Below are positions 1 through 50,603 of a stretch of 64,000 nucleotides of DNA, piece after piece. The stretch lies in IMG/VR virus record IMGVR_UViG_3300042397_000787. One strand, given 5' to 3'. Each line of letters opens with the position of its first letter. The stretch's first letter is position 1. A program made the position numbers and the translations under genes. Source of the stretch: a virus. The notes under the pieces are model-generated. The model ran no database searches. It was given only the letters and a program-made list of their open reading frames with translations, and was not told where the DNA came from.

Positions 1-43
1 ATCCATATTGTTTAACTAGTTCTGCTACAATTGATGGATCCAT
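1..43 (-). CDS. N-terminus of small membrane protein running off window start (MDPSIVAELVKQYG...)
   Basis: ATG at 41-43 overlaps stop of upstream gene; resembles neighbouring DVGFPI membrane protein. Confidence 0.5.
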   Translation of the reverse strand, partial: MDPSIVAELVKQYG

Positions 44-330
44 TAATCTTTCCGAGCATCGTTCTTCCCGTCTGCTCGTGCGATTCTGTCTAGATCTGGT
101 TTAAGACCCAAGGCGGAACTAACAACTGCATCAACGCGAATAATATCATGGTTCATTGTCTTGACTCGGTTGTCGAGTCCCATAATAATACCCTGCATTC
201 CCTTGAGTGCTTTAACAACGCTCTCGAGGATGTAGTTGATAACAAAATATACGAAGACACCACCGAGCAAGGCCGCTGCAATGGGGAATCCTACATCTCC
301 AATAAGTTTAAATATCGTATCGTATGACAT
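43..330 (-). CDS. Small membrane protein (one TM helix + coiled coil), late gene
   Basis: Start reassigned to MSYDTIF just downstream of late promoter; hydrophobic GFPIAAALLGGVFVYFVI. Confidence 0.7.
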   Translation of the reverse strand: MSYDTIFKLIGDVGFPIAAALLGGVFVYFVINYILESVVKALKGMQGIIMGLDNRVKTMNHDIIRVDAVVSSALGLKPDLDRIARADGKNDARKD

Positions 331-338
331 ATCAATTC

Positions 339-350
339 TATTTATAAATA
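339..350. promoter_or_regulatory. Bidirectional T4-type late promoter (TATTTATAAATA palindrome)
   Basis: TATAAATA on + (343-350) and on - (339-346) between two divergent genes. Confidence 0.8.
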
Positions 351-373
351 AACGTAAAGAAGGAAGACAAAAA

Positions 374-1108
374 ATGGCAGGTGCAGCGGCAGAAAGACAA
401 GAAAATACTTTTGTTAAGTCAATTAATGATGCGGTCAAGAAAAATCCGGCTGGAATTAAGATAAAAGCCGGTTCTCAGACTATTTCTGGAGTAATTAAAG
501 CGGAAAAATTCACCGGAAGACAAGTTTCTGGCTCTGAACCCTATATTGATGTCAATTTACATCTGGCTGACGGTAAAACTACAGTAGGCATCTCTATGAA
601 AGGTGAGACTGCGCCCTCATTAGCGGGTGGCGGACTGAAAGGCATCAATTTAGCCGTCCCAGGACTTGCGAATAAGTTTATGAAAGCAGTTTTAGCGCAT
701 CTAAAGAAAAAAATTAAGCCCGGAGACAAAGTTCCGGACTGTTATGGTAAGATTAGTGACCAACATAAAGTAACAATTGTGGTTGGTAACAAAGATATGG
801 GTGGCCCAATTGACTACATGTATATTGGCAACATGACTCCCGTATCTAACTACAACAAAAGCACCAACACACTTTCGTTTAACAATGGAAACTTCTATGA
901 AGCAACCAAATATGCTAAGTCACATGACCTATATTTCAGACTTCGTGCTAGAAGAGAAGACCAAGTGTTTGATCCAACTGCAAAAGACAGTATGAACGTG
1001 CCTAAAATCTATTCTAAGTCACCAAGTAAAGGGGACTCCGCCGGTAGAATAGTTGTTACCGACAAAGTCCCCAATAATGCATTACAAAATGTAGTTAATA
1101 TTGTTTAA
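374..1108 (+). CDS. Putative PD-(D/E)XK-like nuclease; only convincing plus-strand gene
   Basis: Start MAGAAAERQE after AGGAAG; motif YIDV...GISMK; late promoter upstream. Confidence 0.55.
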   Translation: MAGAAAERQENTFVKSINDAVKKNPAGIKIKAGSQTISGVIKAEKFTGRQVSGSEPYIDVNLHLADGKTTVGISMKGETAPSLAGGGLKGINLAVPGLANKFMKAVLAHLKKKIKPGDKVPDCYGKISDQHKVTIVVGNKDMGGPIDYMYIGNMTPVSNYNKSTNTLSFNNGNFYEATKYAKSHDLYFRLRARREDQVFDPTAKDSMNVPKIYSKSPSKGDSAGRIVVTDKVPNNALQNVVNIV

Positions 1109-2043
1109 ACGAAAACGTCTACGTCTAAATCCTTAGAATACTTTGTATCGGGCGGCAGAGTAATCAGCTTCATACCATAATTGTTGACGCCTTCGGGAAG
1201 AACAACACCCTCTTTAAGAGTTAGTGTGTTCTTCTTGAAGGGTGTATAGTCAACATAATGATGCCAACGACCATAACGCCATACAACACGCGCAACATCT
1301 GGGTGCATATCAGCCAACATCTGTGACTTGTTGATGGTGCCCTTCTCGTGGTAACGCTTACCTTCTACTTCTTCACCCTCTTCCAAGAATTCTTTGTGAT
1401 AGAACTCTGCGGTATTACCACCCTTGACGGTTTGTGTAGCAACTTTACCCTGCAAGAACGCATTGAACTGCACCGTGCAGTCACCATCTTTGAGGACGCG
1501 AAGGCAAATATCAGTATCTTCATTGTAACGACCGCGCCAGCGATGCTTACAATCGTTACGGATTAGCAATGTCGAGTAGATACGAGTGTTGGCGACATAA
1601 GGAGGATACTTCTGGTTCGGTGCAATGAAGAACCGATACTGCGGACCAGCAATGTAGAGGTTCTCATAACGGTCAAAGAAGTCTTCCATCACTTTGAAGA
1701 ACACACCAGACTCCACGCGAATACGTTCGTTGCGATACAGACGATAGAAATCTGAAATGTTATCATCTAGAACCCAGTGGGCATCTGCACCGATACTGAT
1801 AGAGTGGTCCCATGCCCAGTTTCTAGCGCGACCGGGGCCATCACCGTGATTGGAGAACGGCGCAACCAGCAGAGTGACACCAGAAAGTCCGAAATTGGTT
1901 ATCGCATCTTTGTAGGGCTGCAAATCTTGAGGTTCGATAATGATATAATGCGGCACTCTCATACGAGAAAGTGACCGCGAAGTAATCATAGTATCGGCAC
2001 GACCCTTAGAAACAATGTAAACGGGGTATTTTGGGTTAGTCAT
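1105..2043 (-). CDS. TET-associated/GREB1-like glycosyltransferase (TAGT), putative DNA base glycosylase-transferase
   Basis: YPVYIVSKGR, GPGRARNWAWDHS, HWVLDDNI, RYNEDTD motifs. Confidence 0.8.
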   Translation of the reverse strand: MTNPKYPVYIVSKGRADTMITSRSLSRMRVPHYIIIEPQDLQPYKDAITNFGLSGVTLLVAPFSNHGDGPGRARNWAWDHSISIGADAHWVLDDNISDFYRLYRNERIRVESGVFFKVMEDFFDRYENLYIAGPQYRFFIAPNQKYPPYVANTRIYSTLLIRNDCKHRWRGRYNEDTDICLRVLKDGDCTVQFNAFLQGKVATQTVKGGNTAEFYHKEFLEEGEEVEGKRYHEKGTINKSQMLADMHPDVARVVWRYGRWHHYVDYTPFKKNTLTLKEGVVLPEGVNNYGMKLITLPPDTKYSKDLDVDVFV

Positions 2044-3118
2044 AAAACAAATGATCCAATGATGTTGATTTCCATCTCGCCAAACTATCAGCGAACATAT
2101 TATTTAGGTTGAGAATCCAGTTCTCTTTACTGTGCTTGGCTTTAGTTCTATTAGATATATCACACCTTTGCTCAAAAGTCAAGCCTTTCAGTGTATTAAT
2201 AACATCTTCTAGTTCTTCTTGCTTGACATTCGTAGGAACCATGATATAGTCAGTATCACTATCAGCAACAGCTTGGCTACCATGTGTACCACTACTATCT
2301 GTAACAAGCACCAGAGGTAGTCCTCTTGTCAAGGCTTCTAATGCAGTAATGCCCCATGACTCCACAGGACAAGTAGAAACGTAAACAGAACCAGTTGCCA
2401 TTACTGCCATGGTATCATGGTGCTTCAAACCGCGAATTGTATCTCTTGGTGTTTCCCAATGAGCATTCTTCTCTGCATATTCTTTCTGTGTATCACTATC
2501 AAATAGAGGAATACTTGTTAGAACACAAGACTTTAGCGCAGACACTTTAAGTTTGTTGTGAAGAAAGAATGGATTCTTAGTAGGGTCCGTGCGACCAACT
2601 GTCACCGCATCAAAGTGTTTGTTTTCAGATACTTGTTCATCGCCGTTAGCAAAGGCTGAGTTGATATAACCATAAGCATTCAAAACATCATGGCCTACGA
2701 TACGCTTAGAGATTGCATTCATCTTACTGTGTTGGTCTTTAGAGACGAAGTAAATGGAACCACCATTAGCAGCGAACTCTTCTTTGGCTTTGATGGATTC
2801 CACGTTGTAGATAGACCGAATACCAGGCGAGTGATTAAGCCACACCACCGGTAAATCAAACTGTTGAAATGCTACTGTATACGCATGACTGAAATGATTA
2901 GTGAAGATAATGTCTGGCTTATGCTCATTCACAGCCCGTTGCATGATATCACCTGTTCTACGTTCCATTCTGTCTTCGAATGTAATGTAAACGGGTATCA
3001 CGCCTTCGATGTTCTCATACACCAGCTTCTGGAATAACTCCACACCACCAAGCACAACATCCGACTCAAGTCGGACATTCTTATCTTTGTGCTGGATGAC
3101 GGGCATTAGTATTCTCAT
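2036..3118 (-). CDS. GT-B glycosyltransferase with C-terminal clamp-binding-like motif
   Basis: GGVE, VGRTDPTKN, ESWGITALEAL; ends SLDHLFYD. Confidence 0.75.
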   Translation of the reverse strand: MRILMPVIQHKDKNVRLESDVVLGGVELFQKLVYENIEGVIPVYITFEDRMERRTGDIMQRAVNEHKPDIIFTNHFSHAYTVAFQQFDLPVVWLNHSPGIRSIYNVESIKAKEEFAANGGSIYFVSKDQHSKMNAISKRIVGHDVLNAYGYINSAFANGDEQVSENKHFDAVTVGRTDPTKNPFFLHNKLKVSALKSCVLTSIPLFDSDTQKEYAEKNAHWETPRDTIRGLKHHDTMAVMATGSVYVSTCPVESWGITALEALTRGLPLVLVTDSSGTHGSQAVADSDTDYIMVPTNVKQEELEDVINTLKGLTFEQRCDISNRTKAKHSKENWILNLNNMFADSLARWKSTSLDHLFYD

Positions 3119-3726
3119 TCGGCTTCAATCCAGCGCAGAAGATAATTCGGTGTCCGTTCTAGCTTGGGGTGCCAGATTGCTTTAGACTTATCCGTCAGCA
3201 CCTGGTCAATGCGCCGCGAGAACTCTTCATAGTCCTCAAGCCGACGAAACTTCACAATAACCGAACGAATTGGTCCGTTATCTTCTAGATACTCAAACTC
3301 TGGCATCCCCACCCAATGCTCTTTCCAAGCACTCTCTTCGGTATCATTCACTTCCACTTCAAGCGAAGCTAGATTCTTATCCGTTCGCGGAGCGCATAGG
3401 CGCCTATCCACATCCACCAATGGTGCTTGGCCATCATCAAACAGCGCAGCACGAGGGTCTGCCAAAGGGTACCAGAAGTCTTTAAGATTACTCGCTACGA
3501 TATACCCGATACGCTTAGAGAGGTCTACGATATCTTCTACGGTGCGGAAGTGGACGTAGATAGCCTTCCACAGGTCTTGGTCTACCTTCTTCTTACCAGA
3601 ATTATCCGCAAGCGGAGTATCTATCACCCCTACCAGATGCTCAAGGGACATGCGATACTCGTCTTGCATCCGCGCATTCTGGTCGAGATAGTTTTCATAA
3701 TCACCAGATTCTTTTACTTCACTCAT
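3115..3726 (-). CDS. TAGT-associated protein with internally duplicated domain
   Basis: IYVHFRTVEDIVDLSKRIG..WYP and VIVKFRRLEDYEEFSRRID..WHP; WVGMPEF; coupled to GT gene. Confidence 0.65.
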   Translation of the reverse strand: MSEVKESGDYENYLDQNARMQDEYRMSLEHLVGVIDTPLADNSGKKKVDQDLWKAIYVHFRTVEDIVDLSKRIGYIVASNLKDFWYPLADPRAALFDDGQAPLVDVDRRLCAPRTDKNLASLEVEVNDTEESAWKEHWVGMPEFEYLEDNGPIRSVIVKFRRLEDYEEFSRRIDQVLTDKSKAIWHPKLERTPNYLLRWIEAE

Positions 3727-3743
3727 AACATCTCCTTATTCCA

Positions 3744-3774
3744 CCAATATAACACTATTAGCTATACAAGTCAA
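3744..3774 (-). promoter_or_regulatory. sigma70-like promoter for glycosyltransferase operon
   Basis: TTGACT-N17-TATATT. Confidence 0.55.
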
Positions 3775-4603
3775 GCATTTTCCTAATACCTTCTCTTAAT
3801 TTCGTAGAAGGACCAAACCCAAGGTCTTTGCGCAATTTACTACCATCCATACGCTGGTAAGGTATCTCAGAAAAATCCTTCTTATTATATAGGATAGGTA
3901 ATTTGGTACCCATCTCCTCTTGGATTATATCAATAACCTCTCTCGTAGAGTAATTCTCCTCACTCGTCACGTTATAAGCGCCAGCTAGATTCTCCCTCCT
4001 CGCAAACGCCATAATAACCTCACACAGGTCGCCAATCCACAGATAGTCACGGCGCATCTCCTCAGACCCCGCCCATATCATAGGCGCCTCACCGCACCGC
4101 AGCCGCGCCACCGTACCAGGTATCAGCCGCGTAAGGTTATTATCGTGCGGCCCGTAAGTATTCGTAAGCCGCAAAGAGATTACGTCCATACCATAATAGT
4201 CACGGTAGAAATCACACAGTTCCGCAGCCAACACCTTGGACTTCTCATAAGGAGAAAAGCCATTCAATGGTGCAGTCTCCGTCAATGGTTTCAGACTTTG
4301 CGCACCATATACCTTATCAGACTCCAGCACAATCACTGGAACACCAAGACCTCGAGCGGATTCCAATACACTAGCAGTAGCAAGAGTATTACTGAGGAAC
4401 GCACCCATGGGATTAGTCGCACACACCGATACAATAGAATTGCCAGCGCAGTGGACAATCGCCTCGATATTACTCATATTATCAACGGCTACGCGAAACT
4501 CCGTGGTCGCAACATCTAGATCGGTTACAACCCATTCCACAGTGGGTTGATGGTATCTCAGAGACTTACCAATGAAGCCTTCATGCCCAGTCAATAATAT
4601 CAC
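3758..4603 (-). CDS. NAD-dependent nucleotide-sugar epimerase/dehydratase
   Basis: TGHEGFIG, SDKVYG, YEKSK, NTYGP; GTG start overlapping upstream TGA. Confidence 0.85.
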   Translation of the reverse strand: MILLTGHEGFIGKSLRYHQPTVEWVVTDLDVATTEFRVAVDNMSNIEAIVHCAGNSIVSVCATNPMGAFLSNTLATASVLESARGLGVPVIVLESDKVYGAQSLKPLTETAPLNGFSPYEKSKVLAAELCDFYRDYYGMDVISLRLTNTYGPHDNNLTRLIPGTVARLRCGEAPMIWAGSEEMRRDYLWIGDLCEVIMAFARRENLAGAYNVTSEENYSTREVIDIIQEEMGTKLPILYNKKDFSEIPYQRMDGSKLRKDLGFGPSTKLREGIRKMLDLYS

Positions 4604-5106
4604 GGCGTCAACTCTTTCCACTCTTCCGGGCTAATGACGTTACAATTTTTTCTAAAGTATCGATACTGTATCAACTCTTCTCTTAGACCCGATGAACCTT
4701 TAGCATCATGTCTATTAACATTGTTACTGTTAGATACCAGAGTACCCTCATCCATGGGTAAGTAATCACTCAAGTTTTCGAAAGGAATTATCTCAAAGTC
4801 AACATAGCGTGGAATATTGATAAGATATGGCTGTCTGTGAACCCATATCCAAAAGTCTTTATCCATACCGTTGTGAGGTTCATGATGGATAAACCAACCC
4901 GTTGTCTCGAACACCTCAGCAGACTTCCATCTGTCTATAGGGTTTCGTAGCACAAGAACTCTTCTCGTAGTAGAATTTATCCACTCGTTCCATCGGTCAT
5001 GCATACCCCTTGGCACCTCTTCGAAGCCAAAGTATTTGCGCATCGATGTATGTCCACATCTAGTGTTAGACAATACATGGACATTACCGTTGTCGTGTAT
5101 GAACAT
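4600..5106 (-). CDS. Sulfotransferase-like protein
   Basis: RCGHTS (5'PSB-like) and LRNPIDRWKS (3'PB-like). Confidence 0.55.
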   Translation of the reverse strand: MFIHDNGNVHVLSNTRCGHTSMRKYFGFEEVPRGMHDRWNEWINSTTRRVLVLRNPIDRWKSAEVFETTGWFIHHEPHNGMDKDFWIWVHRQPYLINIPRYVDFEIIPFENLSDYLPMDEGTLVSNSNNVNRHDAKGSSGLREELIQYRYFRKNCNVISPEEWKELTP

Positions 5107-5289
5107 TCAGGTAGCTGCCTCGGTGCTCCGCTGTAGTATAGTAGCATTAACTAGCTTCCACACAATCTGTTCAATGATATTGGCTTCTTCGTCCATATCC
5201 ATATCATAGAGAGCCATCTGTAGGTCACCTACGCGGCCATCTACGAGGTCATCGAAATACGGGGCATCTTGTTCTAGTAGTATATTCAT
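5107..5289 (-). CDS. Hypothetical protein
   Basis: 60 aa ORF with GAGGAG RBS. Confidence 0.6.
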   Translation of the reverse strand: MNILLEQDAPYFDDLVDGRVGDLQMALYDMDMDEEANIIEQIVWKLVNATILQRSTEAAT

Positions 5290-5336
5290 TTACTTACTCT
5301 CCTCGACTTTATTTAGGGGTTTTTGGTGGCGCGAAA

Positions 5337-5438
5337 AATTCTGGTGGAGGCCATCAGCTTTTTCCTTGGTGCCAGGTGAACGACCTTAAAGCAAGCCGCG
5401 TCTAAAGTCTTGGCACCTAGCCCGGGCCCACCAGATTT
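5337..5438. other. GC-rich nested inverted repeat (structured RNA or DNA element)
   Basis: CTGGTGG/CCACCAG outer and GGTGCCA/TGGCACC inner stems in noncoding gap. Confidence 0.5.
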
Positions 5439-5470
5439 CACTATGGCTTACCTGGCTCTAAGTCTGTGCA

Positions 5471-5502
5471 ACCGCACCTTACTACAACCGTATCTTACTA
5501 CA
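5471..5502. repeat. 16-bp tandem direct repeat x2
   Basis: accgcaccttactaca / accgtatcttactaca. Confidence 0.75.
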
Positions 5503-5521
5503 GGTTACCGGGTTCGCCCGC

Positions 5522-5746
5522 TCACTTCATGGCCCGACGGAGCCTTGCCATATCTTTATCCATAAAGTCACCATCGGCTGACCACTGCCTAAACGCTACA
5601 CATTCGAGCATCTTAGCACCACAGTCTTCCATCATCGGACATCCATCACAGGGTACATCCCGTGCGCTCTCTGGTGTTCCAGTATCAAGCATCGATACCC
5701 GGCTGGGTTCGTGCTGATAATACATATCGAAGCCAATCATATCCAT
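5522..5746 (-). CDS. Small Cys-rich protein
   Basis: CDGC..C......C pattern. Confidence 0.6.
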   Translation of the reverse strand: MDMIGFDMYYQHEPSRVSMLDTGTPESARDVPCDGCPMMEDCGAKMLECVAFRQWSADGDFMDKDMARLRRAMK

Positions 5747-5764
5747 AATATATTTCCTTTTTTA

Positions 5765-6097
5765 TTAGAGGTAGTATGGTCCAGTCCACTGGATCTTATA
5801 ACCACCGTCTAGGATGTTACCACGTGCTTTGTTCTTAGTAGGTGCATTCCAACCAGCAGCTTTGAGGATATCACCCTTACGGAACCCCTTAGCGCAGTCT
5901 TCTTTCTGAATGAAGCCCCACACGCTGTTCTGTGTCACGATGCGGATATACTTGCGGCCTTCTTCGACGCGGATACCCTCTACAAACTCTTCATACATGC
6001 GGTCATTAATCTCGCTGCGGGCCTTACCACTGCATGTCTGCCATGCGAAGTAGTCGGCGTTGATATCTTGGATTAGCTGTTCAATCTGGTTCTGCAT
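5765..6097 (-). CDS. Conserved phage early protein
   Basis: GRKYIRI..WGFI..KGDILKAAGWNAP motif; own early promoter. Confidence 0.75.
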   Translation of the reverse strand: MQNQIEQLIQDINADYFAWQTCSGKARSEINDRMYEEFVEGIRVEEGRKYIRIVTQNSVWGFIQKEDCAKGFRKGDILKAAGWNAPTKNKARGNILDGGYKIQWTGPYYL

Positions 6098-6156
6098 GAT
6101 GATTCTCTTTCTTTTCTCTTACTATACCAATATACACGATTCGCAGGGAATGTCAA
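6098..6156 (-). promoter_or_regulatory. Early promoter/leader cassette copy 1
   Basis: TTGACA-TTCCCTGCGAATCGTG-TATATT; leader AGAAAGAGAATC-ATC-ATG. Confidence 0.8.
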
Positions 6157-6359
6157 GCGGTATTTTGAAGAATTCTATTGCGCTTTGTGAGGCTATAACC
6201 ATCTTCGTACCATGGTGCATCGTCTGGTGTGATGAGTTCGGTATAACGAATGCCCGCTTGGACACGCATGTAATTCCAGAACTTACGAGCATCTTCGAAG
6301 TTATCGAACAGCTTGTCCTTAAGGGAATAGTTGTAATAGCGATATTGGACCTTATACAT
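6153..6359 (-). CDS. Hypothetical early protein
   Basis: 68 aa; stop lies inside next TTGACA. Confidence 0.65.
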   Translation of the reverse strand: MYKVQYRYYNYSLKDKLFDNFEDARKFWNYMRVQAGIRYTELITPDDAPWYEDGYSLTKRNRILQNTA

Positions 6360-6418
6360 AACGAATCACTTTCTCTCTGACTTCTATTTCACTATAGCAG
6401 AACCAGTAGTAATGTCAA
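6360..6418 (-). promoter_or_regulatory. Early promoter/leader cassette copy 2
   Basis: TTGACA..GC-TATAGT; leader AGTCAGAGAGAAAGTGATTCGTT-ATG. Confidence 0.85.
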
Positions 6419-6480
6419 CCATTCATTTCAGCTAACCAAGTGATTGATTCATTAGAGTTATTCTTTAGTCGCTACACTCC

Positions 6481-6509
6481 TTTATAACACATGGCAAGTG
6501 ATTCGTCAA
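6481..6509 (-). promoter_or_regulatory. Early promoter copy 3 (GANTC overlapping -35)
   Basis: TTGACG-AATCACTTGCCATGTGT-TATAAA. Confidence 0.65.
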
Positions 6510-6520
6510 GAGAAAAACAT

Positions 6521-6552
6521 AAAAAAGGTCCCCGAGTCGAAACCCGAGGACC
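6521..6552 (-). terminator. Rho-independent terminator
   Basis: GGTCCTCGGGT-TTCG-ACTCGGGGACC-TTTTTT. Confidence 0.85.
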
Positions 6553-6581
6553 AGTGTGTGACCTAGAGAAAGGAAGTAAAA

Positions 6582-6746
6582 CTAGGTCATGATGAAACGC
6601 TGTGGCATACGCTTGTTGATAAAGCTAGTGGCATATTGCTCAACCGCATGCTTGGAACCCTTTCGGTCCGCTACCCAGGAACCGTTAACGTATAGGTCCA
6701 GCAGGTAGGTACCAGGCTTTATCTTCGTAATGGTATAGTCTCGCAT
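6582..6746 (-). CDS. Hypothetical early protein (54 aa)
   Basis: Start MRDYTIT after AGGAGA. Confidence 0.6.
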   Translation of the reverse strand: MRDYTITKIKPGTYLLDLYVNGSWVADRKGSKHAVEQYATSFINKRMPQRFIMT

Positions 6747-6780
6747 GGTGGTTCTCCTAGTGAGGGTTACCGAACCGTTA

Positions 6781-6826
6781 TGATTCGTATTATCTATAAT
6801 ATAACACAAAGGCACCATGGTGTCAA
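6781..6826 (-). promoter_or_regulatory. Early promoter copy 4
   Basis: TTGACA..TGT-TATATT; CGAATCA just downstream. Confidence 0.65.
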
Positions 6827-6972
6827 GTAAAAAATGCGCGGCGGTGCCGAGGAGGAGGGAATTGGCCGAGGATTAAGACCAGGTTATATGGTCGCTAATA
6901 TGCTCTGGTGGCGTGGTCTAGTTCATGGACACTGGAATCTGAATATTATACTAATAGTTAGTGGGATTTACT

Positions 6973-7013
6973 AACCCCAGTTCAACCCAGTGTAACCCAG
7001 TGTCAACCCCAGT
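6973..7013. repeat. Four imperfect 10-11 bp tandem repeats (AACCC(C)AGT)
   Basis: aaccccagttc aacccagtgt aacccagtgtc aaccccagtc. Confidence 0.75.
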
Positions 7014-7158
7014 CTAGTTGTTCTCTCACCACTGGTACAATGACTGTCTTGTCATCTTCTCTTATAGCTTTATGGGTTGCTTCTCTCTCTGTGATATACT
7101 TACCATACTGGTGATTGGTATATCCTAGTTCATTCTCTATAAGATAATTGTTACTCAT
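7003..7158 (-). CDS. Hypothetical protein (51 aa)
   Basis: Start MSNNYLIE. Confidence 0.45.
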   Translation of the reverse strand: MSNNYLIENELGYTNHQYGKYITEREATHKAIREDDKTVIVPVVREQLDWG

Positions 7159-7249
7159 TACACAAGGATGACCAATATAACGATGATTGCTACTACTAAT
7201 GACCATTCTACTGGTCCATAGTCTTTGATGATTTCTTTAATAAATTTAA

Positions 7250-7384
7250 TCAAAATTGATACTCCACCCAATAGTGTGCTGTTTTACCACTGGACCATGT
7301 TACCTTACTACCTCTATATCTCTTATATGGAATAAGAGGTGTTTCGGTTGGTAGTGGTAGTTTCTTCCATTCTTTCTCTGTCAT
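7250..7384 (-). CDS. Hypothetical protein (44 aa, below ORF-track cutoff)
   Basis: Manual translation MTEKEWKKLPLP...WVEYQF. Confidence 0.45.
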   Translation of the reverse strand: MTEKEWKKLPLPTETPLIPYKRYRGSKVTWSSGKTAHYWVEYQF

Positions 7385-7441
7385 ACTGTTATCTCTCTAT
7401 ACAAAAATAATGAAAAATTGTTCATTTCGGCCGTGTGGTGA

Positions 7442-7591
7442 TCATATAATTGGTACACTAATAGAGGTCTTTTGCCATTGCTCTTCACCATTATCCTCTG
7501 ACAATAGCCTGTTCTCCTGTATCTTCTTTACCACTTTACCGGTTTGTTCGTCATACCAGTATTCTATGATTTCTTCACGGATTTTCTTCAT
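7442..7591 (-). CDS. Hypothetical protein (49 aa)
   Basis: Manual translation MKKIREEIIEYWYDEQTG...; GAGGA RBS. Confidence 0.5.
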   Translation of the reverse strand: MKKIREEIIEYWYDEQTGKVVKKIQENRLLSEDNGEEQWQKTSISVPII

Positions 7592-7721
7592 TGTCCTCGG
7601 CCTTCTTCAATGCTTTTGCTGCAATATTGGCACAGGTATATCCGTGTCCATGGCCGTGTGAATGACCGAACTTCTCGATTTCTTTGAGGGCTTGTTCATA
7701 TACCTTCAGCAGTTCGGTCAT
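7575..7721 (-). CDS. Hypothetical protein (48 aa, HSHGHGHG)
   Basis: ATGA overlap with upstream HD gene. Confidence 0.5.
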   Translation of the reverse strand: MTELLKVYEQALKEIEKFGHSHGHGHGYTCANIAAKALKKAEDNEENP

Positions 7722-8167
7722 TTGTTGGGTACCTGGGCTAGTAGTTCAAGATAGAATTGATTATACTTGGCCAGACGGGCGATATCCTTTTCGGTAACAC
7801 CCTTGAGGCGACGGATATCGGTGTTGTGGCGAAGGTCTGACATCTTCACTCTCATGGCATCTTCGTTGGCCATTACCTCTTGCTTGTATTGGTCATAGGA
7901 TTGACCTGGCATCTTGGTGAGTGCGGAGACTGCGGCTAGAACACGTTCGGTGCAACCAATGGCGCGTAGGTCGTCCCAGGTGGTATCGGTATCTTCGATA
8001 ACGTCATGAAGCAATGCGATGCACTGGAGTTCTTCGTCTGTTGTCTTGAGGTAATGCATCACCTTCATTGGGTGAAGGATGTATGGGTTACCACCGCGGT
8101 CAAACTGACCTGCATGGGCATTCGTGGCTAGGACGAGGACTTTACCGAGTAGTTCACCTTTTTTCAT
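7718..8167 (-). CDS. HD-domain small alarmone hydrolase-like (RelA/SpoT hydrolase, Mesh1-like)
   Basis: HAGQFDRGGNPYILHP, ALLHDVIEDT, VKMSDLRHN. Confidence 0.8.
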   Translation of the reverse strand: MKKGELLGKVLVLATNAHAGQFDRGGNPYILHPMKVMHYLKTTDEELQCIALLHDVIEDTDTTWDDLRAIGCTERVLAAVSALTKMPGQSYDQYKQEVMANEDAMRVKMSDLRHNTDIRRLKGVTEKDIARLAKYNQFYLELLAQVPNK

Positions 8168-8259: not shown

Positions 8260-9252
8260 TTATTTTCCATGCATAGTCCCTGAACCTTTAACACCGGAAA
8301 GGGGATCCGATTGGCTGTTATATTTCATTCTGTGTTGTGCGAACTTTTTACCTTTATAATAAAAGGAAATTGCTGCGCCAGAACGTTCTGTTTTTAAATT
8401 GATATGTTTAGGATCTGCTAGAATGTGTTCATGGTGTGCAGCAGGATCGATGGCATGTGTGGAGTGATTGCCATATGTGGTATGACGTATATGGTTGTGT
8501 CCTGCTTGCTGAAGTGGGGTGGCATGTGCATGAAGAACATGATTTCGAATATGAGTTACCAAGTCTTCATGAGTACCTGAAGTTAAGTGTTTATGCATAT
8601 GTTCTGCAATGCTGTGCAATACATGGGCATTTTGTCGCTTGATTTCCGCATGTGCTTCCGGATTAGCCTTTGCCCACTCTTTACGACTGGCCGCATTTGT
8701 TAGGTTCTTTAGTTCTGGATGTTGTTTTTTGATATTCTCACGGTGTGCAGCCAAAATCTTTTCGCCGCCATGAGTTGATTCCATACCTGGATTAGATACA
8801 GGAACGTGACCGGTGTTACTGTCCGTCACTTTTAGACTTATACCGTGATGTTTTCCATGTTTGTCTGATACCATGACATCAGAGGCGTCTTGCTTTTGAG
8901 TAGAATGAATACCAGTTGATCTATGAATGTCGCCCGGCTTCGAGGTCCAATGAACATGCTTTATTGGATGACCAATTCGCTTTTTAATATCATCAGCCGC
9001 AGCCTTTGCTCTATCATTAATTTTTTTATAGTTCTCGTGGGACATTGTAGACTTTAACTGGTCATGAGCTTCTTTAGGTGAATGTCCGTTTACATCATGG
9101 TGTTTTTCCATGTGGTTGCCGCCATTTAGATGATAGCCAGTTAATAGTTCATGCATAACACCTTTAGTGTTTGCACTAACAGTATTATGGGTCTCTGTGG
9201 CTTCTGATAGATAAAACCAATGTAAATCATTCCACTGGGCAAACGATATCAT
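8260..9252 (-). CDS. His-rich late protein, PD-(D/E)XK-like nuclease with putative capsid-targeting N-terminus
   Basis: MISFAQW...LSEA; ASDVMV...GISLK; AATAAATA upstream. Confidence 0.55.
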   Translation of the reverse strand: MISFAQWNDLHWFYLSEATETHNTVSANTKGVMHELLTGYHLNGGNHMEKHHDVNGHSPKEAHDQLKSTMSHENYKKINDRAKAAADDIKKRIGHPIKHVHWTSKPGDIHRSTGIHSTQKQDASDVMVSDKHGKHHGISLKVTDSNTGHVPVSNPGMESTHGGEKILAAHRENIKKQHPELKNLTNAASRKEWAKANPEAHAEIKRQNAHVLHSIAEHMHKHLTSGTHEDLVTHIRNHVLHAHATPLQQAGHNHIRHTTYGNHSTHAIDPAAHHEHILADPKHINLKTERSGAAISFYYKGKKFAQHRMKYNSQSDPLSGVKGSGTMHGK

Positions 9253-9379: not shown

Positions 9380-9544
9380 TCAAGAGACAGGCGTGAAAAG
9401 GTCATCTAATGCTATCTTCTTGAGGTTGTTGCTTTTCATATCACGAAGAATACTCGCCGCTGGTCCAGCACCGGGCCCGGGCCACTCTCGTTCAAGCCTC
9501 TGCGCACACTCCTCAATAACGGCATCCCTGGCTTCCTTATCCAT
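9380..9544 (-). CDS. Hypothetical protein (54 aa) ending ALDDLFTPVS
   Basis: Manual translation; TAATG coupling to upstream gene. Confidence 0.5.
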   Translation of the reverse strand: MDKEARDAVIEECAQRLEREWPGPGAGPAASILRDMKSNNLKKIALDDLFTPVS

Positions 9545-9960
9545 TAGATTCCTGAGAATGTTACCAGTTGTTTATACCCACGCCACGAAGGGTGCACACC
9601 ATCTGGCTGCACGAATTTGGTACCGATGATGGTATCACCATAACTCTTAGCAATCTCCGTGACGGTCTTGTTCACACCGGGCTTGCAGAATTTGGCATTG
9701 CAAGGAGGCATAATCCAGACGACCTTCAGAGACTTGATACGGTACCGCACCTTGGACAGTTCTTTATAGGTGTTCACACCCTTGTGGTCATTGGTACCGA
9801 GACTGATCACTACGGTCTTAGCCGCTAGTGGTGTGGTACCCCACCGCTTGTTCCATTGCCAGGTGTTGAAGCCACCCTTGGCATAGGACACGCACTCGGT
9901 AGGTGCGAACATCTTGGTACCTACAGCGATGGAGTCACCTATAATCAAACATTCAAGCAT
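9544..9960 (-). CDS. SGNH/GDSL hydrolase
   Basis: IIGDSIAVG, SLGTND, DGVHP. Confidence 0.8.
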   Translation of the reverse strand: MLECLIIGDSIAVGTKMFAPTECVSYAKGGFNTWQWNKRWGTTPLAAKTVVISLGTNDHKGVNTYKELSKVRYRIKSLKVVWIMPPCNAKFCKPGVNKTVTEIAKSYGDTIIGTKFVQPDGVHPSWRGYKQLVTFSGI

Positions 9961-15849: not shown

Positions 15850-15900
15850 AACTTCTCACTTTCTATAATCACTTATAGACGATTCGCAGGCAAATGTCAA
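15850..15900 (-). promoter_or_regulatory. Early promoter cassette copy 10
   Basis: TTGACA-TTTGCCTGCGAATCGTC-TATAAG. Confidence 0.8.
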
Positions 15901-16937
15901 GAAAATAAATGGTCCAATGTGACAGGTACAGCCTTCTCTGGCTTTTTTGAAAATACCATAATGCTCTCATCGGTATTGATATCTACCTTCGCACTGGGTC
16001 TGGTTATATTCTTTAGCGTAATGGACTCCACATAATAGAAGCCGAGACTTTCTGCAATGGCTCTAGTATCAGCGCATAACTTATAATTCAGGAAGTCCTT
16101 GATGTTGATTAGCATCTTGCCATCATCAATCAGATATTTTTTGATGTTTTCCAGAGTGGGTCTTAGATATGTATCTAGCCATTCCTGATATGTAGTACCA
16201 GGCTTAAATGACTGGTCACCAATTTTATAATCTTCTAGACTGAAATACGGCGGACTGCTAAATGCTACACCGATGGTGTTCTCCCACTCTGGAACAAATG
16301 TTTGAGAACCATGACACCGAATGTCATACTTTGCAGAGGTGCCATTCACTGTATTGTAGTCAGTGGCCATTTGGTTGAGGCGTTCTACTAGCAGATTGTT
16401 GGGGTCAGTGCCGTAATATTCCACTCGGTTTCTTAGGGACGAAAGCATCCTAACGCCCCAACCACACGAGAAGTCATAGTATTTACCATTGATATTATAC
16501 CTGAATAGGATATCGTCAACCGACTTAATTGGATAATTAGACGGCTTCATTGCAACACCACCGCCACTAAGCCGTAATGCGGCCTCAAAGTTCTCTATAT
16601 CAGAGTTGGTCTTTGGATATACCTTGTCACTAGAAAGCACCCTACTCCAGAAGTATCGAATCAAATCCATAGATTCGAATACTTCTTCTATTGACCAACG
16701 TGGAGACTCCAGCTTCACCTTGGCCATAAGGTCTTTTACATAGTAACTAGTAATGGTGCTTATGATAGTGCTACCATCATATACTGCTTTTAGGTTTTTG
16801 TTAACCAGTTCAAAATCAGGCTTTTCGTAATATGCGGCCTTCAATTCTAAGCACTTATCTTCTGGCAAATCATACCAGTGGTCGGTATTAAGTGTCTTGC
16901 CTAAATGGGTAATTTGGTATTTTTTACTTTTTCCCAT
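15897..16937 (-). CDS. Amino (N4C/N6A) DNA methyltransferase with C-terminal clamp-like motif
   Basis: YDFSCGWG (motif I), SSPPYF (motif IV); ends TLDHLFS. Confidence 0.8.
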   Translation of the reverse strand: MGKSKKYQITHLGKTLNTDHWYDLPEDKCLELKAAYYEKPDFELVNKNLKAVYDGSTIISTITSYYVKDLMAKVKLESPRWSIEEVFESMDLIRYFWSRVLSSDKVYPKTNSDIENFEAALRLSGGGVAMKPSNYPIKSVDDILFRYNINGKYYDFSCGWGVRMLSSLRNRVEYYGTDPNNLLVERLNQMATDYNTVNGTSAKYDIRCHGSQTFVPEWENTIGVAFSSPPYFSLEDYKIGDQSFKPGTTYQEWLDTYLRPTLENIKKYLIDDGKMLINIKDFLNYKLCADTRAIAESLGFYYVESITLKNITRPSAKVDINTDESIMVFSKKPEKAVPVTLDHLFS

Positions 16938-17374: not shown

Positions 17375-18052
17375 TTATTTTTTGTAGGCAGCATCTTCCT
17401 TCTTGCCGATAGGATTACGGACTTCGGCAGATGCTATCTTACGGATGTGCTTGTGAACCTGAGTGAGGCCATGCTCGTCGGTGTGGTCATTGTCCACAAT
17501 GTGCATATGTTCTGCGCCGAAATGCTTCTGGAAGTGGCCGATGTTGCCCTGCACTTGCTTGTGCATTCTCTCGACTTCATGGTGCGGCAGACTACGTTCG
17601 CGCTGGTCGTTGCGCTTCTTGGCTGTCTCTAGTGAGGTGTTTACGAATACCATGTGAGTATCGTAGCCTGCTTTACGTAGGCGTTCGGAGTGCTTTCTAA
17701 TCTTCTCCGGGTCTTTACCTGTGCCATCAATCACTAGACCAAGGCGACCTTTAACGTAATGGTGTTCACGCTTATGGGTTAGTTCCTTAGCATGGTCACG
17801 AATCTCTTGACCCTTCTTGGAGTAGACATTTTCAGGAGTGGCTTTCAGGCCATGCTTCTTCATACCCTTCTCGAATAGGTCATCCGAGTTGACTTGCTTG
17901 AAGCCAAGACCATGTGTGGTCTTCTTAGATACATAAGACTTACCTGAGCCGGGACCACCTGCTAGGAAGATAGCCTTACGTCTAGCTGGGTCATGGATAC
18001 CCTCATCTAGGACTTCTTCTACGAGGTTGATAAAATCGGCAAATGATAGCAT
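17375..18052 (-). CDS. Zeta-toxin/AAA_33-like P-loop kinase, late, putative capsid-internal
   Basis: GGPGSGKS, LVIDGTG, RNDQRER; N-term MLSFADF..LDE; TATAAATA upstream. Confidence 0.75.
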   Translation of the reverse strand: MLSFADFINLVEEVLDEGIHDPARRKAIFLAGGPGSGKSYVSKKTTHGLGFKQVNSDDLFEKGMKKHGLKATPENVYSKKGQEIRDHAKELTHKREHHYVKGRLGLVIDGTGKDPEKIRKHSERLRKAGYDTHMVFVNTSLETAKKRNDQRERSLPHHEVERMHKQVQGNIGHFQKHFGAEHMHIVDNDHTDEHGLTQVHKHIRKIASAEVRNPIGKKEDAAYKK

Positions 18053-18072: not shown

Positions 18073-18080
18073 TATTTATA
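18073..18080 (-). promoter_or_regulatory. T4-type late promoter
   Basis: TATAAATA. Confidence 0.75.
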
Positions 18081-18082
18081 TC

Positions 18083-18649
18083 TTACTTACCCTTTACCAT
18101 ATCGTAAATGTCAGCCCAGGTCTTGGCCCGGAAGCTGTCCAGAACACCCATGTTGTGTTCGTGATCGATTAGAATACCACGCAGACCAACCTTTAGACCG
18201 GCTTCAACGTTTTCTGGCTTGTCTTCAATCCAGAACAGTCCGCTGTCCTTATATGGTGCAAGGGCATCATCCTTGTCGGCACCACAGTCAAGGCAAATTA
18301 CACTCTCAATGGCATCACCAAAGAACTGCTTAAGGTTTGCTTCACGTGCCTTGACAGCCCATGGGTCCTTGCTCAGGCTGGTGATGACACGGAACTGATA
18401 TCCCTGCTCCTCATACATACGCCGAACATAGTAGACGGCATCACGGAAGGGCTTTAGGAAGCCGATGGCTGCGCTCTCGTTGAATTGCCGCACTAGTTCC
18501 TTGCTCTTCTTCTTGTCGATACCGTACCGTTCGTTGATATGGTAGACATCGGTGCGAATTTCTTTGTAGCCTTTGAGTGCCATCCACTCGGTAAACGTGG
18601 TACTCCAGTCTAATAGAACACCGTCACAATCTGTAAGAATCAATTTCAT
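18083..18649 (-). CDS. HAD-family 5'(3')-deoxyribonucleotidase-like phosphatase
   Basis: LTDCDGVLLDW, ITSL, WIEDKPEN. Confidence 0.8.
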   Translation of the reverse strand: MKLILTDCDGVLLDWSTTFTEWMALKGYKEIRTDVYHINERYGIDKKKSKELVRQFNESAAIGFLKPFRDAVYYVRRMYEEQGYQFRVITSLSKDPWAVKAREANLKQFFGDAIESVICLDCGADKDDALAPYKDSGLFWIEDKPENVEAGLKVGLRGILIDHEHNMGVLDSFRAKTWADIYDMVKGK

Positions 18650-18663
18650 TTTTTTATTTTCTC

Positions 18664-19137
18664 TCAATTAGGTATCTTCTGCGTTGCACACCACTTGTGG
18701 TTCAACCCCACTTCGCGACCGTATGCTTCAATCTCCCAAGGAGCATCGAAATATGCATCTTCCTTACCCTTAGGCTTCCATATCTGGCCCATCCACTTGC
18801 TGTAGATTTTGAGACCACCACGAGCAGCCACCGCATGACCAGTCTGAAGTTCGTTCTTGGCATGTTGCTTGACATGGACCATTTCGTGACCGAGAACCTT
18901 GATCATCTCATCGATGTCTTGGTTCTTGAGACCAATGGTGAACCACCGTGGGTTCTTGGTGCCGTCCTCGTCAACGCACTCGCCCTCTAGGTCAAAGTTT
19001 TTCCAAACTTCGATATCAAGGGTGAGATTGCGGACCATGCGTGGGTCCATTAGTTGAGCGGCGAAGAATTCTGCTGCCTCGATCAACTTCTGCTTATCAG
19101 CGCGACGACCAATCAAACCTGTAACTGAAATATCCAT
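18664..19137 (-). CDS. Zincin-like metalloprotease
   Basis: HEMVH...PWEIEA. Confidence 0.7.
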   Translation of the reverse strand: MDISVTGLIGRRADKQKLIEAAEFFAAQLMDPRMVRNLTLDIEVWKNFDLEGECVDEDGTKNPRWFTIGLKNQDIDEMIKVLGHEMVHVKQHAKNELQTGHAVAARGGLKIYSKWMGQIWKPKGKEDAYFDAPWEIEAYGREVGLNHKWCATQKIPN

Positions 19138-45250: not shown

Positions 45251-45403
45251 TTATTCGTCCTCGTCCCAGTCATCAAACTCGAGGTCTTCTTCGGCTATCT
45301 TGGTTCCACAAAACGGACAGTATTTAGTTTTGTAGTATTCTTCATCCAATTCATGCTCCACCAAAAACACGGCATCACATGAAAAGCATTCCTGTTCTTC
45401 CAT
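45251..45403 (-). CDS. Acidic Zn-ribbon protein (50 aa, not in ORF track)
   Basis: CFSC...CPFCG; coupled to nrdB stop. Confidence 0.7.
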   Translation of the reverse strand: MEEQECFSCDAVFLVEHELDEEYYKTKYCPFCGTKIAEEDLEFDDWDEDE

Positions 45404-46389
45404 TATGCAGCTCCCCAAACACTTTCCCATGTACCAGATAGAGCGCCCTTGGCATAATCGGTAGCACGATTTTCAAAGAAGTTGGTATGAGTAGGCGCAT
45501 TGATCATTTCTTCAACCCATGGTAGAGGATTCTTCTTTACTTTAAAGATACCTTTAAGACCAAGACTAATCAATCTACGGTCGCAAATGTAACGAATATA
45601 CTTTTTAACATCATCTTCCGTCAAATCTTCCATAGCTCCCATGGAGAATGAAAGTTCAATAAACTTGTCTTCCAGGTCTACCATTTTCTCGGCAATAGTA
45701 TATATGCTAGACTTTAGTTCGTCGTTCCATATATCTCTATTCTCTTCAACATATGCACGGAACAACTTAATCATCGACTCGGCATGCATTGTTTCATCAA
45801 CGATTGACCAAGTAACGATCTGTCCCATTCCCTTCATTTTCCCGTGACGAGGGAAGTTGAGGAGCATGATGAAGGACGAGAACAACTGCATACCTTCAGT
45901 GAACGCCGAAAATGCAGCAATGTTAGTGGCGACAGATTCCTTTGTGCCATTTGAATTCGACAAATCTGTAAAGTAGTCGTGTTTTGCCCGCATTGAGTCG
46001 TATTCAAGGAATTCTTGATACGTTGTTTCAGGCATACCCAACGTCTCAATAAGGTGTGAGTAAGCGGCGACATGAAGAGCCTCCCTTGCTGCAAATCCCA
46101 TCAACATCATACGGATTTCAGGTTGAGGGAAATATGGTAGATAGTTCTTTACATAACCACCCGCGACATCGATATCACCTTGTGTAAAGAAACGAAAAAT
46201 GTTAGTGAGAAAATGCTTTTCGCCGTCAGTAAGACGTTTCTTCCAATCGTTTACATCTTCAATCATAGGAACTTCTGTATGAAGCCAGTGGGATTGTTCA
46301 TGCTTCAACCAGGCATCATATGCCCACGGGTAATTAAATGGCTTAAAATAAGAACGTTCATCCATAAGAGTAATCGAAGGTTTGGTCAT
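45403..46389 (-). CDS. nrdB: Ribonucleotide reductase class I beta subunit
   Basis: REALH, EGMQLFSSF, DETMH, NFFE. Confidence 0.95.
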   Translation of the reverse strand: MTKPSITLMDERSYFKPFNYPWAYDAWLKHEQSHWLHTEVPMIEDVNDWKKRLTDGEKHFLTNIFRFFTQGDIDVAGGYVKNYLPYFPQPEIRMMLMGFAAREALHVAAYSHLIETLGMPETTYQEFLEYDSMRAKHDYFTDLSNSNGTKESVATNIAAFSAFTEGMQLFSSFIMLLNFPRHGKMKGMGQIVTWSIVDETMHAESMIKLFRAYVEENRDIWNDELKSSIYTIAEKMVDLEDKFIELSFSMGAMEDLTEDDVKKYIRYICDRRLISLGLKGIFKVKKNPLPWVEEMINAPTHTNFFENRATDYAKGALSGTWESVWGAA

Positions 46390-47108
46390 TTGTTGGCTTT
46401 CGTAAATAACATGTAAGTCTGGTCGTAGGTGGAATCGAAAAGTTTTTCTACTTGCCAAGTAGTCTCGTCGGCAATAGCATATACTATATCTTCACTATAT
46501 CTATATGGCTCGGCAATTTCAACCTTTTTATATTCTAAATCCGGTGTTTCTGAAAATAAAAAAGTAATTATAAGTTTAGCATCATCATTGAATAGGTTGT
46601 GAGAACGAGACAAAAATAATTTTAGTTTATCGTAATGTAAATGAGTAAATACAGAATGGGCAAATCCAAAATCAAACTTTACATTAAAATCTTCAAATGA
46701 AAAATCGTCAGTAATTATAAAATTTTCGGATGTTATCTTATTCTGTAAATTATATTTCGGAACTTCGTAATTAAGACCAGCTTCAACTAATCCTAGATTA
46801 ACATCTATACCATAATAATTATTAGGGTCAAGATATTCGATTAATTTGCAACCAACTCTCATACTACCACAACCAACATCTAGTATTTTCATGTTGGATT
46901 GTAGTCCATGAGACTTTAATATATCAAGATGATGAGTTCCTATTTCATCCCAATGTTCTATTGGTCCACCTACTAATTTTCTATGGTCATTATCTTGTTT
47001 TCTGTAATCACTGAGTATTTCAAATGGAGAATAATAACCATTGTCTAAATCAATAGGAGTCTCTGCTAATATCTCACATTTATTCAAAATCAATTTTCGG
47101 CGGCCCAC
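46386..47108 (-). CDS. Class I SAM methyltransferase inserted in nrd operon (AT-rich)
   Basis: ILDVGCGSMR, HSVFTH. Confidence 0.8.
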   Translation of the reverse strand: MGRRKLILNKCEILAETPIDLDNGYYSPFEILSDYRKQDNDHRKLVGGPIEHWDEIGTHHLDILKSHGLQSNMKILDVGCGSMRVGCKLIEYLDPNNYYGIDVNLGLVEAGLNYEVPKYNLQNKITSENFIITDDFSFEDFNVKFDFGFAHSVFTHLHYDKLKLFLSRSHNLFNDDAKLIITFLFSETPDLEYKKVEIAEPYRYSEDIVYAIADETTWQVEKLFDSTYDQTYMLFTKANK

Positions 47109-47326
47109 TTAACAAGATCGTCATAACCACCAACATGTTCACCATTGATCCAAATCTGTGGAACAGTGGTCACATTAGGAAGTTGTGCAGTAATGTCTTC
47201 CCAAAGGCAGTCTTTTCCGACTACCATTTCGGTATATTGAATGTCCATACCCTGCATAAACTCTTTTGCTTTTACGCAATAAGGGCAATCTGGTTTTGAA
47301 ACTATTTGTGCAAACAATTGTGTCAT
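47090..47326 (-). CDS. nrdC: Glutaredoxin
   Basis: CPYC, TVPQI, GGYDDL. Confidence 0.92.
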   Translation of the reverse strand: MTQLFAQIVSKPDCPYCVKAKEFMQGMDIQYTEMVVGKDCLWEDITAQLPNVTTVPQIWINGEHVGGYDDLVKWAAEN

Positions 47327-47330
47327 TTAC

Positions 47331-49130: not shown

Positions 49131-49673
49131 TTATAGTCCCTGTTCCTTCAAAACTTTTTCGATGTCTGGTTTAAAGTAAGTATCTGGTTTCAGAATCTTA
49201 CCATCTGCCCGTTTCTTAATCTTTCCACTCTCGGAAACCTTGCTCATATTTGATGCTCGAACTTCTTCCCATACCGCATCAAAATTAATACCCAGAGTTG
49301 CGAAAAGTCCTTTTACGACCCAGACTAAATCTGCGCCACCATCTGCAACGTCACCGATGTGCCGACGAAGAAATCCGTCACACAGTTCGCGGAATTCTTC
49401 ATCAATTAGATCAATATATAGCTTGGCTTGAGCCTCATTATTTTCATTTAGATGTGGAGTTGCACCGATATACTGGTCGGCCGCTGCCATAAACTGTTCA
49501 ACATCATTCTGATAATTATTATTCTTCTTACTCAATGTATAACTCCCATCTTCATTTTCTATCCAAATTATTGTATCACCGGGCTTCCACCCAGTTTCTT
49601 CCTCAAGGCCATCCCAGGCAATATAATGTTCATCTGAAACTGCATCATACTGCACTGTAACTGTATCCACCAT
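49131..49673 (-). CDS. MazG-like/PRA-PH NTP pyrophosphatase with AbrB-like N-terminus
   Basis: LIDEEFREL..ADG.AD..EVRASNMSK..DGKILKP. Confidence 0.8.
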   Translation of the reverse strand: MVDTVTVQYDAVSDEHYIAWDGLEEETGWKPGDTIIWIENEDGSYTLSKKNNNYQNDVEQFMAAADQYIGATPHLNENNEAQAKLYIDLIDEEFRELCDGFLRRHIGDVADGGADLVWVVKGLFATLGINFDAVWEEVRASNMSKVSESGKIKKRADGKILKPDTYFKPDIEKVLKEQGL

Positions 49674-49674
49674 T

Positions 49675-50520: not shown

Positions 50521-50603
50521 CTATCTTCCCGACTTTTTTGAGTTAAAAATTTGGCGAGAAAAAAATGTCACTTGCCGTTTTTCAAAGGTTCCTGGCTTTT
50601 TGG

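Follow-up and report, generated by a model that had tools for sequence, protein, structure and literature searches.

What is modified by a phage that carries glycosyltransferases of a DNA-modifying type, without the known enzymes that prepare a base to receive a sugar? This question is raised by a gene cluster at positions 1105-4603 of a 64,000-nucleotide stretch (the window) from an uncultured, freshwater, T4-like phage. Bases 102-64000 of the window are bases 1-63899 of IMG/VR record IMGVR_UViG_3300042397_000787 (G000; 103,629 bases, CheckV completeness 59%); window bases 1-101 lie outside G000. The cluster is read here, with moderate confidence, as an early-expressed, replisome-associated module that modifies phage DNA with sugar at the replication fork.

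The replication and nucleotide genes of the window include gp43-type and gp45-type genes, ribonucleotide reductase, ThyX, DNA ligase, and a T4-type RNase H. No deposited phage was matched by window positions 1-8000 in megablast, and 465 IMG/VR contigs encode a relative of the cluster's TAGT protein. A collinear relative of 171,566 bases (G001; 78-92% nucleotide identity, CheckV 100%) was retrieved in full, and two further relatives are 86% (G002) and 80% (G003) complete by CheckV. The module was compared across 80 related phage loci (L-numbered).

Constant core and optional enzymes

The first-pass annotation of this DNA placed four minus-strand genes in the cluster, and all four are present, three of them with Pfam matches: TAGT (PF20691), a second glycosyltransferase, GT4 (PF00534), and a short-chain dehydrogenase/reductase, SDR (PF01370). 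The features are as follows.

1105..2043, minus strand: TAGT-family GT-A glycosyltransferase, 312 amino acids, constant catalytic core of the module (PF20691, phrog_842)
2036..3118, minus strand: GT4-family GT-B glycosyltransferase, 360 amino acids, optional second transferase (PF00534, EX7E motif)
3115..3726, minus strand: p203, acidic protein with two copies of an uncharacterised domain of ~70-100 amino acids, obligate partner of the TAGT clade, no family match
3746..3774, minus strand: sigma70-like early promoter for the p203-GT4-TAGT operon (TTGACT-17-TATATT with upstream TG, 10/12 match)
3758..4603, minus strand: extended SDR of the nucleoside diphosphate (NDP)-sugar epimerase/dehydratase superfamily, 281 amino acids, or 287 from a GTG at 4621 (PF01370, PF16363)
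4600..5106, minus strand: p168, small sulfotransferase-like protein, 168 amino acids (GTGA overlap with SDR; weak Sulfotransfer_2 signals in orthologues)

Translational coupling of three of these genes had been proposed and is borne out: p203, GT4, and TAGT lie on the same strand, with overlaps of 4 nt (ATGA) between p203 and GT4 and 8 nt between GT4 and TAGT. The ribosome-binding site of p203 (AAGGAG) is 7 nt ahead of its ATG. The SDR gene is adjacent, as annotated, but is not a member of the coupled triplet. The 31-nt gap between it and p203 is the site of the triplet's own promoter and of the AAGGAG, and SDR is instead coupled through its GTGA overlap to the upstream p168 gene. No T4-type late promoter (TATAAATA) was found upstream of the cluster on the same strand.

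The assignment of TAGT to its family is firm. The protein matches PF20691 over the full length of the model (1-205/205; E 4.3e-43, 148.1 bits, cut-off 27.5), a score confirmed on the DNA (149.3 bits), and also matches phrog_842 (E 8.7e-45). R15, D93-D94, and E175-D176 are invariant in TAGT and its paralogues and correspond to the R...DDD...ED motif of phage DNA GT-A enzymes. The AlphaFold2 model (pLDDT 68.7, pTM 0.74) has a GT-A fold (VIA Z 11-13; Foldseek E 4e-5), with TarP (6h1j) among its VIA matches at Z 11.4. The enzyme is GT-A and GT2-like, and therefore probably inverting. Its homologues form at least 7502 clusters; no protein in 14 control cellular genomes scores above the PF20691 cut-off and, judged by these genomes, the family appears to be restricted to phages.

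The protein p203 is acidic (pI 4.8), and the duplication noted in it is real: single-domain homologues of 111-128 amino acids resemble residues 128-201 closely and, more faintly, residues 3-90, and the AlphaFold2 model, of moderate confidence, has two beta-alpha-beta units. No match was found in Pfam, PHROG, or NCBIfam, nothing by tblastn against phages, and no named family in the ESM Atlas; the best hit of a p203 profile against PDB sequences had E 0.11. Fold searches gave at best E 2.3 (Foldseek against PDB) and Z 3.1 (VIA-wide, weak ferredoxin/ACT-like rows). A hidden Markov model (HMM) of the domain does match the N-terminal extension of TAGT in Aeromonas Aeh1, Tenacibaculum PTm1, Pectobacterium POP12, and Vibrio Kuja, as well as a separate open reading frame (ORF) in Vibrio henriette 12B8. 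The domain is found in 2698 clusters (E<=1e-3) among 1.84 billion representatives. Both of the N-terminal-domain fusion proteins checked (2/2) carry TAGT; the non-TAGT fusion partners, a LAGLIDADG domain and a zinc ribbon, are uninformative.

Comparison of the loci shows what is constant. In 79 of the 80, a p203-type domain is next to or fused with TAGT, as a single-domain gene of ~120 amino acids, a duplicated gene of ~200 amino acids (as in this phage), or an N-terminal fusion in proteins of ~510 amino acids. Judged by these loci, the domain is a previously undescribed, strongly conserved, and obligate partner of the TAGT clade. Domain and TAGT are the only components in 24 of the 80 loci, while in the others one extra enzyme is encoded directly before TAGT or before the fusion. 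This slot is occupied by GT4 in 15/80 loci, by a divergent second TAGT (PF20691, E ~1e-8) in 23/80, and otherwise by S-adenosylmethionine (SAM) methyltransferases (Methyltransf_11 or FkbM type) or unknown proteins. The constant core is therefore the p203 domain plus TAGT, not the two transferases as initially supposed, and the second enzyme is optional. In this phage, that enzyme is GT4, which matches PF00534 (E 8.2e-7, 29.2 bits, cut-off 26.4), has its EX7E motif at residues 253-261, and weakly matches BshA.

This conservation bears on another possible reading, in which a T-even-like glucosylation system has lost its hydroxymethylase and the cluster is what is left of it, decaying or silent. 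Such a history would fit the absence of a hydroxymethylase; however, the catalytic residues are invariant, the 80 loci retain TAGT at 73-96% identity and its further homologue clusters number thousands, conservation of the partner domain is strong, and the coupling, promoter, and ribosome-binding site are intact. A remnant is thus very improbable indeed.

The SDR was labelled a sugar dehydratase. It does belong to the NDP-sugar SDR superfamily (PF01370, E 3.2e-34, 118.9 bits, cut-off 20.9; PF16363, 8.4e-36), with TGxxGxxG and YxxxK motifs, but it lacks the Asp-Glu pair of the 4,6-dehydratases, the catalytic site being S-D-K where these have T-D-E (2hun). No NCBIfam equivalog scores above its cut-off (TIGR01181, 107.9 bits against 365). 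The best PDB match is 6wjb (E 6e-20), which we take to be a PelX-type UDP-GlcNAc 4-epimerase, with dTDP-glucose dehydratases close behind. On the grounds of this best match, the S-D-K site, and the missing equivalog, an epimerase appears more likely than a 4,6-dehydratase. Nor is the enzyme a regular component of the module, dedicated to it though it was thought to be. Besides this phage, an orthologue adjoins the module in 1/80 loci (L010/G002); two other loci have only a distant SDR (~20% identity) several kb off, and it is absent from a relative with a 96%-identical TAGT. By this distribution, SDR is a recent, lineage-specific accessory.

No Pfam match was found for p168 itself. Its orthologue in L006 gives a Sulfotransfer_2 match under the cut-off (E 4.9e-4), and in the ESM Atlas 19 of 30 named neighbours are Sulfotransfer_2 clusters. 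In L003 and L005-L008, the gene immediately upstream of p203 is a p168 homologue, and p168 may be tied to the module.

The clamp-type tail and the replication fork

The optional transferase has a C-terminus, STSLDHLFYD, that resembles those of phage DNA polymerases. The phage's own family B polymerase (845 amino acids, 32% identical to T4 gp43) ends in ATLEDLFA, and T4 gp43 ends in KASLDFLFG, its gp45-binding tail. The two further features concerned are as follows.

2039..2062, minus strand: codons of the GT4 C-terminal tail SLDHLFYD, putative sliding-clamp (gp45-type) binding motif by likeness to the gp43 tail
15897..16937, minus strand: DNA amino-methyltransferase outside the cluster, C-terminus VTLDHLFS (PF01555, 2.4e-7; FSCGWG and SPPY motifs)

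Of 525 ORFs, 3 have the strict motif [ST]L[DE].LF among their last 10 residues, where shuffled sequences would give 0.007, and the three are GT4, the DNA polymerase, and the DNA amino-methyltransferase, with no others. A gp45 homologue was found in the phage. A looser form of the tail, [STDN]L..[LFM][FIMY], is kept in 11 of 15 GT4 orthologues at 34-96% identity, and a clamp-type tail in 20 of 23 orthologues of the second TAGT; proteins of both kinds keep it despite otherwise divergent sequences. In G001, for example, the slot is occupied by a second TAGT ending in GSLEDLF. T4 alpha-glucosyltransferase co-purifies with gp45 (PMC13216743). The GT4 tail is therefore a candidate for binding the gp45-type clamp.

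Genomic context also places the module with replication genes. In most marine relatives it lies between gp47/gp46 and gp45/gp44, in cultured phages it is found beside helicase, polymerase, or clamp-loader genes, and coupling to a helicase gene is seen in a Paraglaciecola virus. Taken together, the clamp-type tail and early expression speak for a DNA target at the replication fork.

We infer the target, the order of the two sugar transfers, and the roles of SDR and p168 as follows. TAGT (GT-A, probably inverting) would work with its acidic duplicated partner p203. GT4 (GT-B, typically retaining), held on the gp45-type clamp by its SLDHLF tail, would add or extend a sugar. The acquired SDR, probably an epimerase, would supply a non-standard NDP-sugar, and the sulfotransferase-like p168 may tailor the product. 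The acceptor would most likely be a pyrimidine hydroxylated by an enzyme that escapes current models.

Other C-termini in these genomes are of similar appearance. In the freshwater subclade, TAGT has an additional tail of ~15 residues (codons 1105-1150; ...KYSKDLDVDVFV, in relatives ...SMSLDVEDYV or ...SMALDVDEFV) that is absent in marine orthologues and could be a degenerate second clamp-type motif. Small ORFs of 60-90 amino acids that end in ALDDLF or ALDELF plus a few residues are present at 9380-9571 (minus strand) in the window and at 160023-160453 (plus strand) in G001. They have no family match and may be further clamp-binding small proteins, perhaps gp33-like.

The acceptor and comparison with known systems

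Part of what weighs against DNA as the target concerns the acceptor. That the window holds no hydroxymethylase or TET gene, as annotated, is confirmed, and the search of the genome beyond it, recommended at the time, also came back empty in G000 and in the near-complete G001, so the absence is not an effect of the window's edge. Genes for thymidylate synthase (TS)-family enzymes, Tet_JBP dioxygenases, C5 DNA methyltransferases, and TGT/DpdA were sought with PF00303, PF12851, PF00145, and PF01702, none of which has a match in G000, G001, G002, or G003. At E<=1, neither PF12851 nor PF00303 is matched in G000-G005, although the Tet_JBP search had no positive control, and neither PF00145 nor PF12851 in G000-G004. 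The TS-family search covers dCMP or dUMP hydroxymethylase and 5-hydroxy-dCMP synthase. Homologues of T4 gp42, gp56, and beta-glucosyltransferase were not found in the phage, whose sole thymidylate enzyme is a canonical, single-copy ThyX. TS-family genes are present in 1/14 further TAGT contigs, and none was found in the cultured Vibrio phage 1.076.O. QueC gave weak matches only, and only in G001.

Other points on this side concern the module itself. TAGT has no detectable pairwise similarity to the T6 enzyme YP_010067197 (BLASTP E 0.98), and the acceptor is therefore not transferable by homology. The partner domain, with a pI of 4.5-4.9 across its range, is ill-suited to DNA binding. In the 24 minimal loci with p203 domain and TAGT, neither core protein has a clamp tail, and clamp binding by GT4 is proposed from a six-residue motif. 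With no known precursor enzyme and a dissimilar T6 TAGT, the acceptor base cannot be inferred or named. The DNA-glycosylation reading of the first-pass annotation is thus supported in part, by the family assignment, the clamp-type tail, and likeness to validated architectures.

Three candidates were rejected. Orthology of TAGT to the T6 beta-glucosyl-HMC-alpha-glucosyltransferase is discounted by the same BLASTP result and by the lack of a gene 42 homologue or synteny. P4H-type 2-oxoglutarate-Fe(II) oxygenases (one in G000, four in G001) are not a consistent partner, as their occurrence differs from one relative to another and all lie away from the module. The idea that ThyX is a hydroxymethylase in disguise is disfavoured by its canonical RHR-x7-S motif, its single copy, and the lack of any literature precedent found, and is kept as a speculative lead.

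The near-complete genome without an acceptor-making enzyme and the acidic partner domain are also what would be expected of a non-DNA target: a protein of the host or of the phage (in host takeover), RNA, or a small-molecule or envelope precursor, with the partner domain as substrate adaptor or as substrate. In Vibrio phage 1.076.O (47.9 kb), the gene lies between portal and head-morphogenesis genes, and the closest solved folds use teichoic acid, polysaccharide, protein, or nucleoside acceptors. Such a target is nonetheless considered rather unlikely. The clamp-type tail is common only to GT4, the DNA polymerase, and the DNA methyltransferase, the module is in replication gene blocks in most relatives, an early promoter drives its expression, and the TAGT family is otherwise tied to DNA.

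If DNA is the target, a canonical base might be glycosylated directly, for example by N-glycosylation of an exocyclic amine, and no hydroxylating enzyme would be needed. This would suit the 24 loci in which the minimal module stands alone and the genomes that have the module without a known precursor pathway, and N-glycosylating GT-A enzymes exist for proteins, the NleB-type arginine GlcNAc transferases. Against it, there is no DNA precedent, the known DNA sugar modifications all being O-linked to a hydroxylated base, and no sequence feature specifically argues for such chemistry. Direct glycosylation is accordingly regarded as quite improbable, and a modified pyrimidine acceptor in DNA continues to be preferred.

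A broader proposal is offered only tentatively. Aquatic phages of a very abundant clade, T4-like and others, may glycosylate DNA without known base-activating enzymes, by way of either an unrecognised hydroxylating enzyme or direct glycosylation of a canonical base; a clamp-tethered GT4, a second TAGT, or methyltransferases would then elaborate the sugar behind the fork.

Elsewhere in the window, a nucleotide-precursor operon at 45403-51314 (minus strand) encodes ThyX, an epimerase-like SDR (49675-50520), a MazG/PRA-PH-type NTP pyrophosphohydrolase (49131-49673), NrdA, a SAM methyltransferase, and NrdB. The adjacency of ThyX and this SDR is kept in G000-G003. Lying within a dNTP-supply operon, the sugar-type SDR could be a lineage-wide donor or base-modification enzyme, and the ThyX-SDR-MazG operon is a candidate source of an unrecognised hydroxylated base. 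In addition, an NT5C-type pyrimidine 5'-deoxyribonucleotidase (18083-18667) adjoins a zeta-toxin/AAA_33 P-loop kinase (17375-18052; late promoter at 18073-18080), both on the minus strand. The pair resembles the dTMPase and kinase functions known from phages in which thymidine is replaced or hypermodified.

The T6 TAGT is the only biochemically defined member of the family. In T2 and T6, a GT-B alpha-glucosyltransferase and TAGT build gentiobiosyl-hydroxymethylcytosine (for the link of the T4 alpha-glucosyltransferase to gp45, PMC13216743). The present cluster likewise pairs a GT-B enzyme with a TAGT-family GT-A enzyme among the early genes of a T4-like phage, with a proposed clamp link for the GT-B. 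The T6 enzyme, however, is 279 amino acids long and lacks a partner domain, and its gene is coupled to gene 42, whereas the phage investigated here is without gene 42, gene 56, and T4-type alpha- or beta-glucosyltransferases. Its GT-B is GT4-like rather than GT72, and its constant element is TAGT plus partner rather than the GT-B.

With two glycosyltransferases of different folds and an NDP-sugar SDR, the cluster matches architectures for which experiments have demonstrated the attachment of mono- to trisaccharides to 5-hydroxymethylcytosine of phage DNA (Pyle et al., bioRxiv 10.1101/2023.12.21.572611). Among these clusters, which depend on a methyltransferase and 5mYOX, subclass I uses two successive glycosyltransferases and subclass II a glycosyltransferase with a sugar epimerase (bioRxiv 10.1101/2023.12.21.572611). 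Shared with the present cluster are GT-A enzymes with R...DDD...ED and TarP-like folds, a GT-B resembling BshA/MshA, an epimerase-dependent sugar, and gp45/clamp neighbours. In contrast, no C5-methyltransferase, 5mYOX, or ThyS is found nearby or in the near-complete relative. The earlier suggestion that two transferases and a sugar enzyme build the modification thus agrees with published architectures, but the second transferase and SDR are optional. About 65% of contigs with DNA-type glycosyltransferases have no precursor enzyme, which was left unexplained (bioRxiv 10.1101/2023.12.21.572611), and the present cluster belongs to these.

Closer relatives are the solitary TAGTs of Aeromonas T4-like phages (Aeh1 ORF087c, phage 65, phiAS5), each described as one that 'presumably modifies DNA, unknown base' (PMC8056088). 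They are of the same clade (44-50% identity) and have the same partner domain, there as an N-terminal fusion; here the partner is separate and duplicated, and a clamp-tailed GT4, SDR, and a sulfotransferase-like gene are added. Aeh1 encodes a canonical ThyA, the present phage ThyX alone. Solitary TAGT has been reported in 288 of 753 genomes (PMC13216743). The cluster is thus a member of a large unstudied class, with TAGT and an obligate partner, an optional clamp-tailed enzyme, and no known acceptor pathway.

DNA sugar modifications govern the attack on phage by restriction enzymes, CRISPR nucleases, and DNA-glycosylase defences, and the systems that make them supply enzymes for epigenetic sequencing. 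For this class there are now three new handles. The obligate partner domain can be co-expressed with TAGT, the clamp-type tails would tie the second, optional enzyme physically to replication in a way that can be tested, and four known routes to an acceptor are excluded by a near-complete genome. The same module is carried by the cultured phages Aeh1, 65, PTm1, and Vibrio 1.076.O, in which the question can be put to the test.

Neighbouring gene and triplet avoidance

One further gene adjoins the cluster.

374..1108, plus strand: basic protein of 244 amino acids, pI 9.7 (late promoter TATAAATA at 343-350)

This gene is convergent to TAGT, and their stop codons overlap by 4 nt. The same convergent position is occupied in close relatives by this gene or by a distant homologue of the 330-amino-acid protein encoded at 8260-9252. 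Nuclease identity for the 374-1108 product was considered and rejected, with no support from Pfam, PHROG, NCBIfam, or PDB sequences. Neighbouring ORFs of unknown function have no informative match in PHROG or NCBIfam.

Within the cluster, positions 3151-4393 form a stretch of 1242 bp without TGA or TGT on the plus strand, so that the sense strand of p203 and most of SDR contains neither ACA nor TCA. Across the window, TGA/TGT recur every 30 bp on average, and no other gap is longer than 236 bp. ACA/TCA content is normal on the antisense strand of this stretch and in the co-transcribed GT4, TAGT, and p168. The avoidance is common to the p203 genes of the close relatives L003-L009 (83-90% nucleotide identity), with 1-4 sites each, and is not seen in the more distant p203 genes of L010-L012 or in the SDR of L010. 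Since close relatives share it, the avoidance is conserved and strand-specific rather than the product of a single hypermutation event. An RNA-level cause, for instance an mRNA interferase cutting at ACA/UCA, would fit this pattern better than avoidance of restriction.

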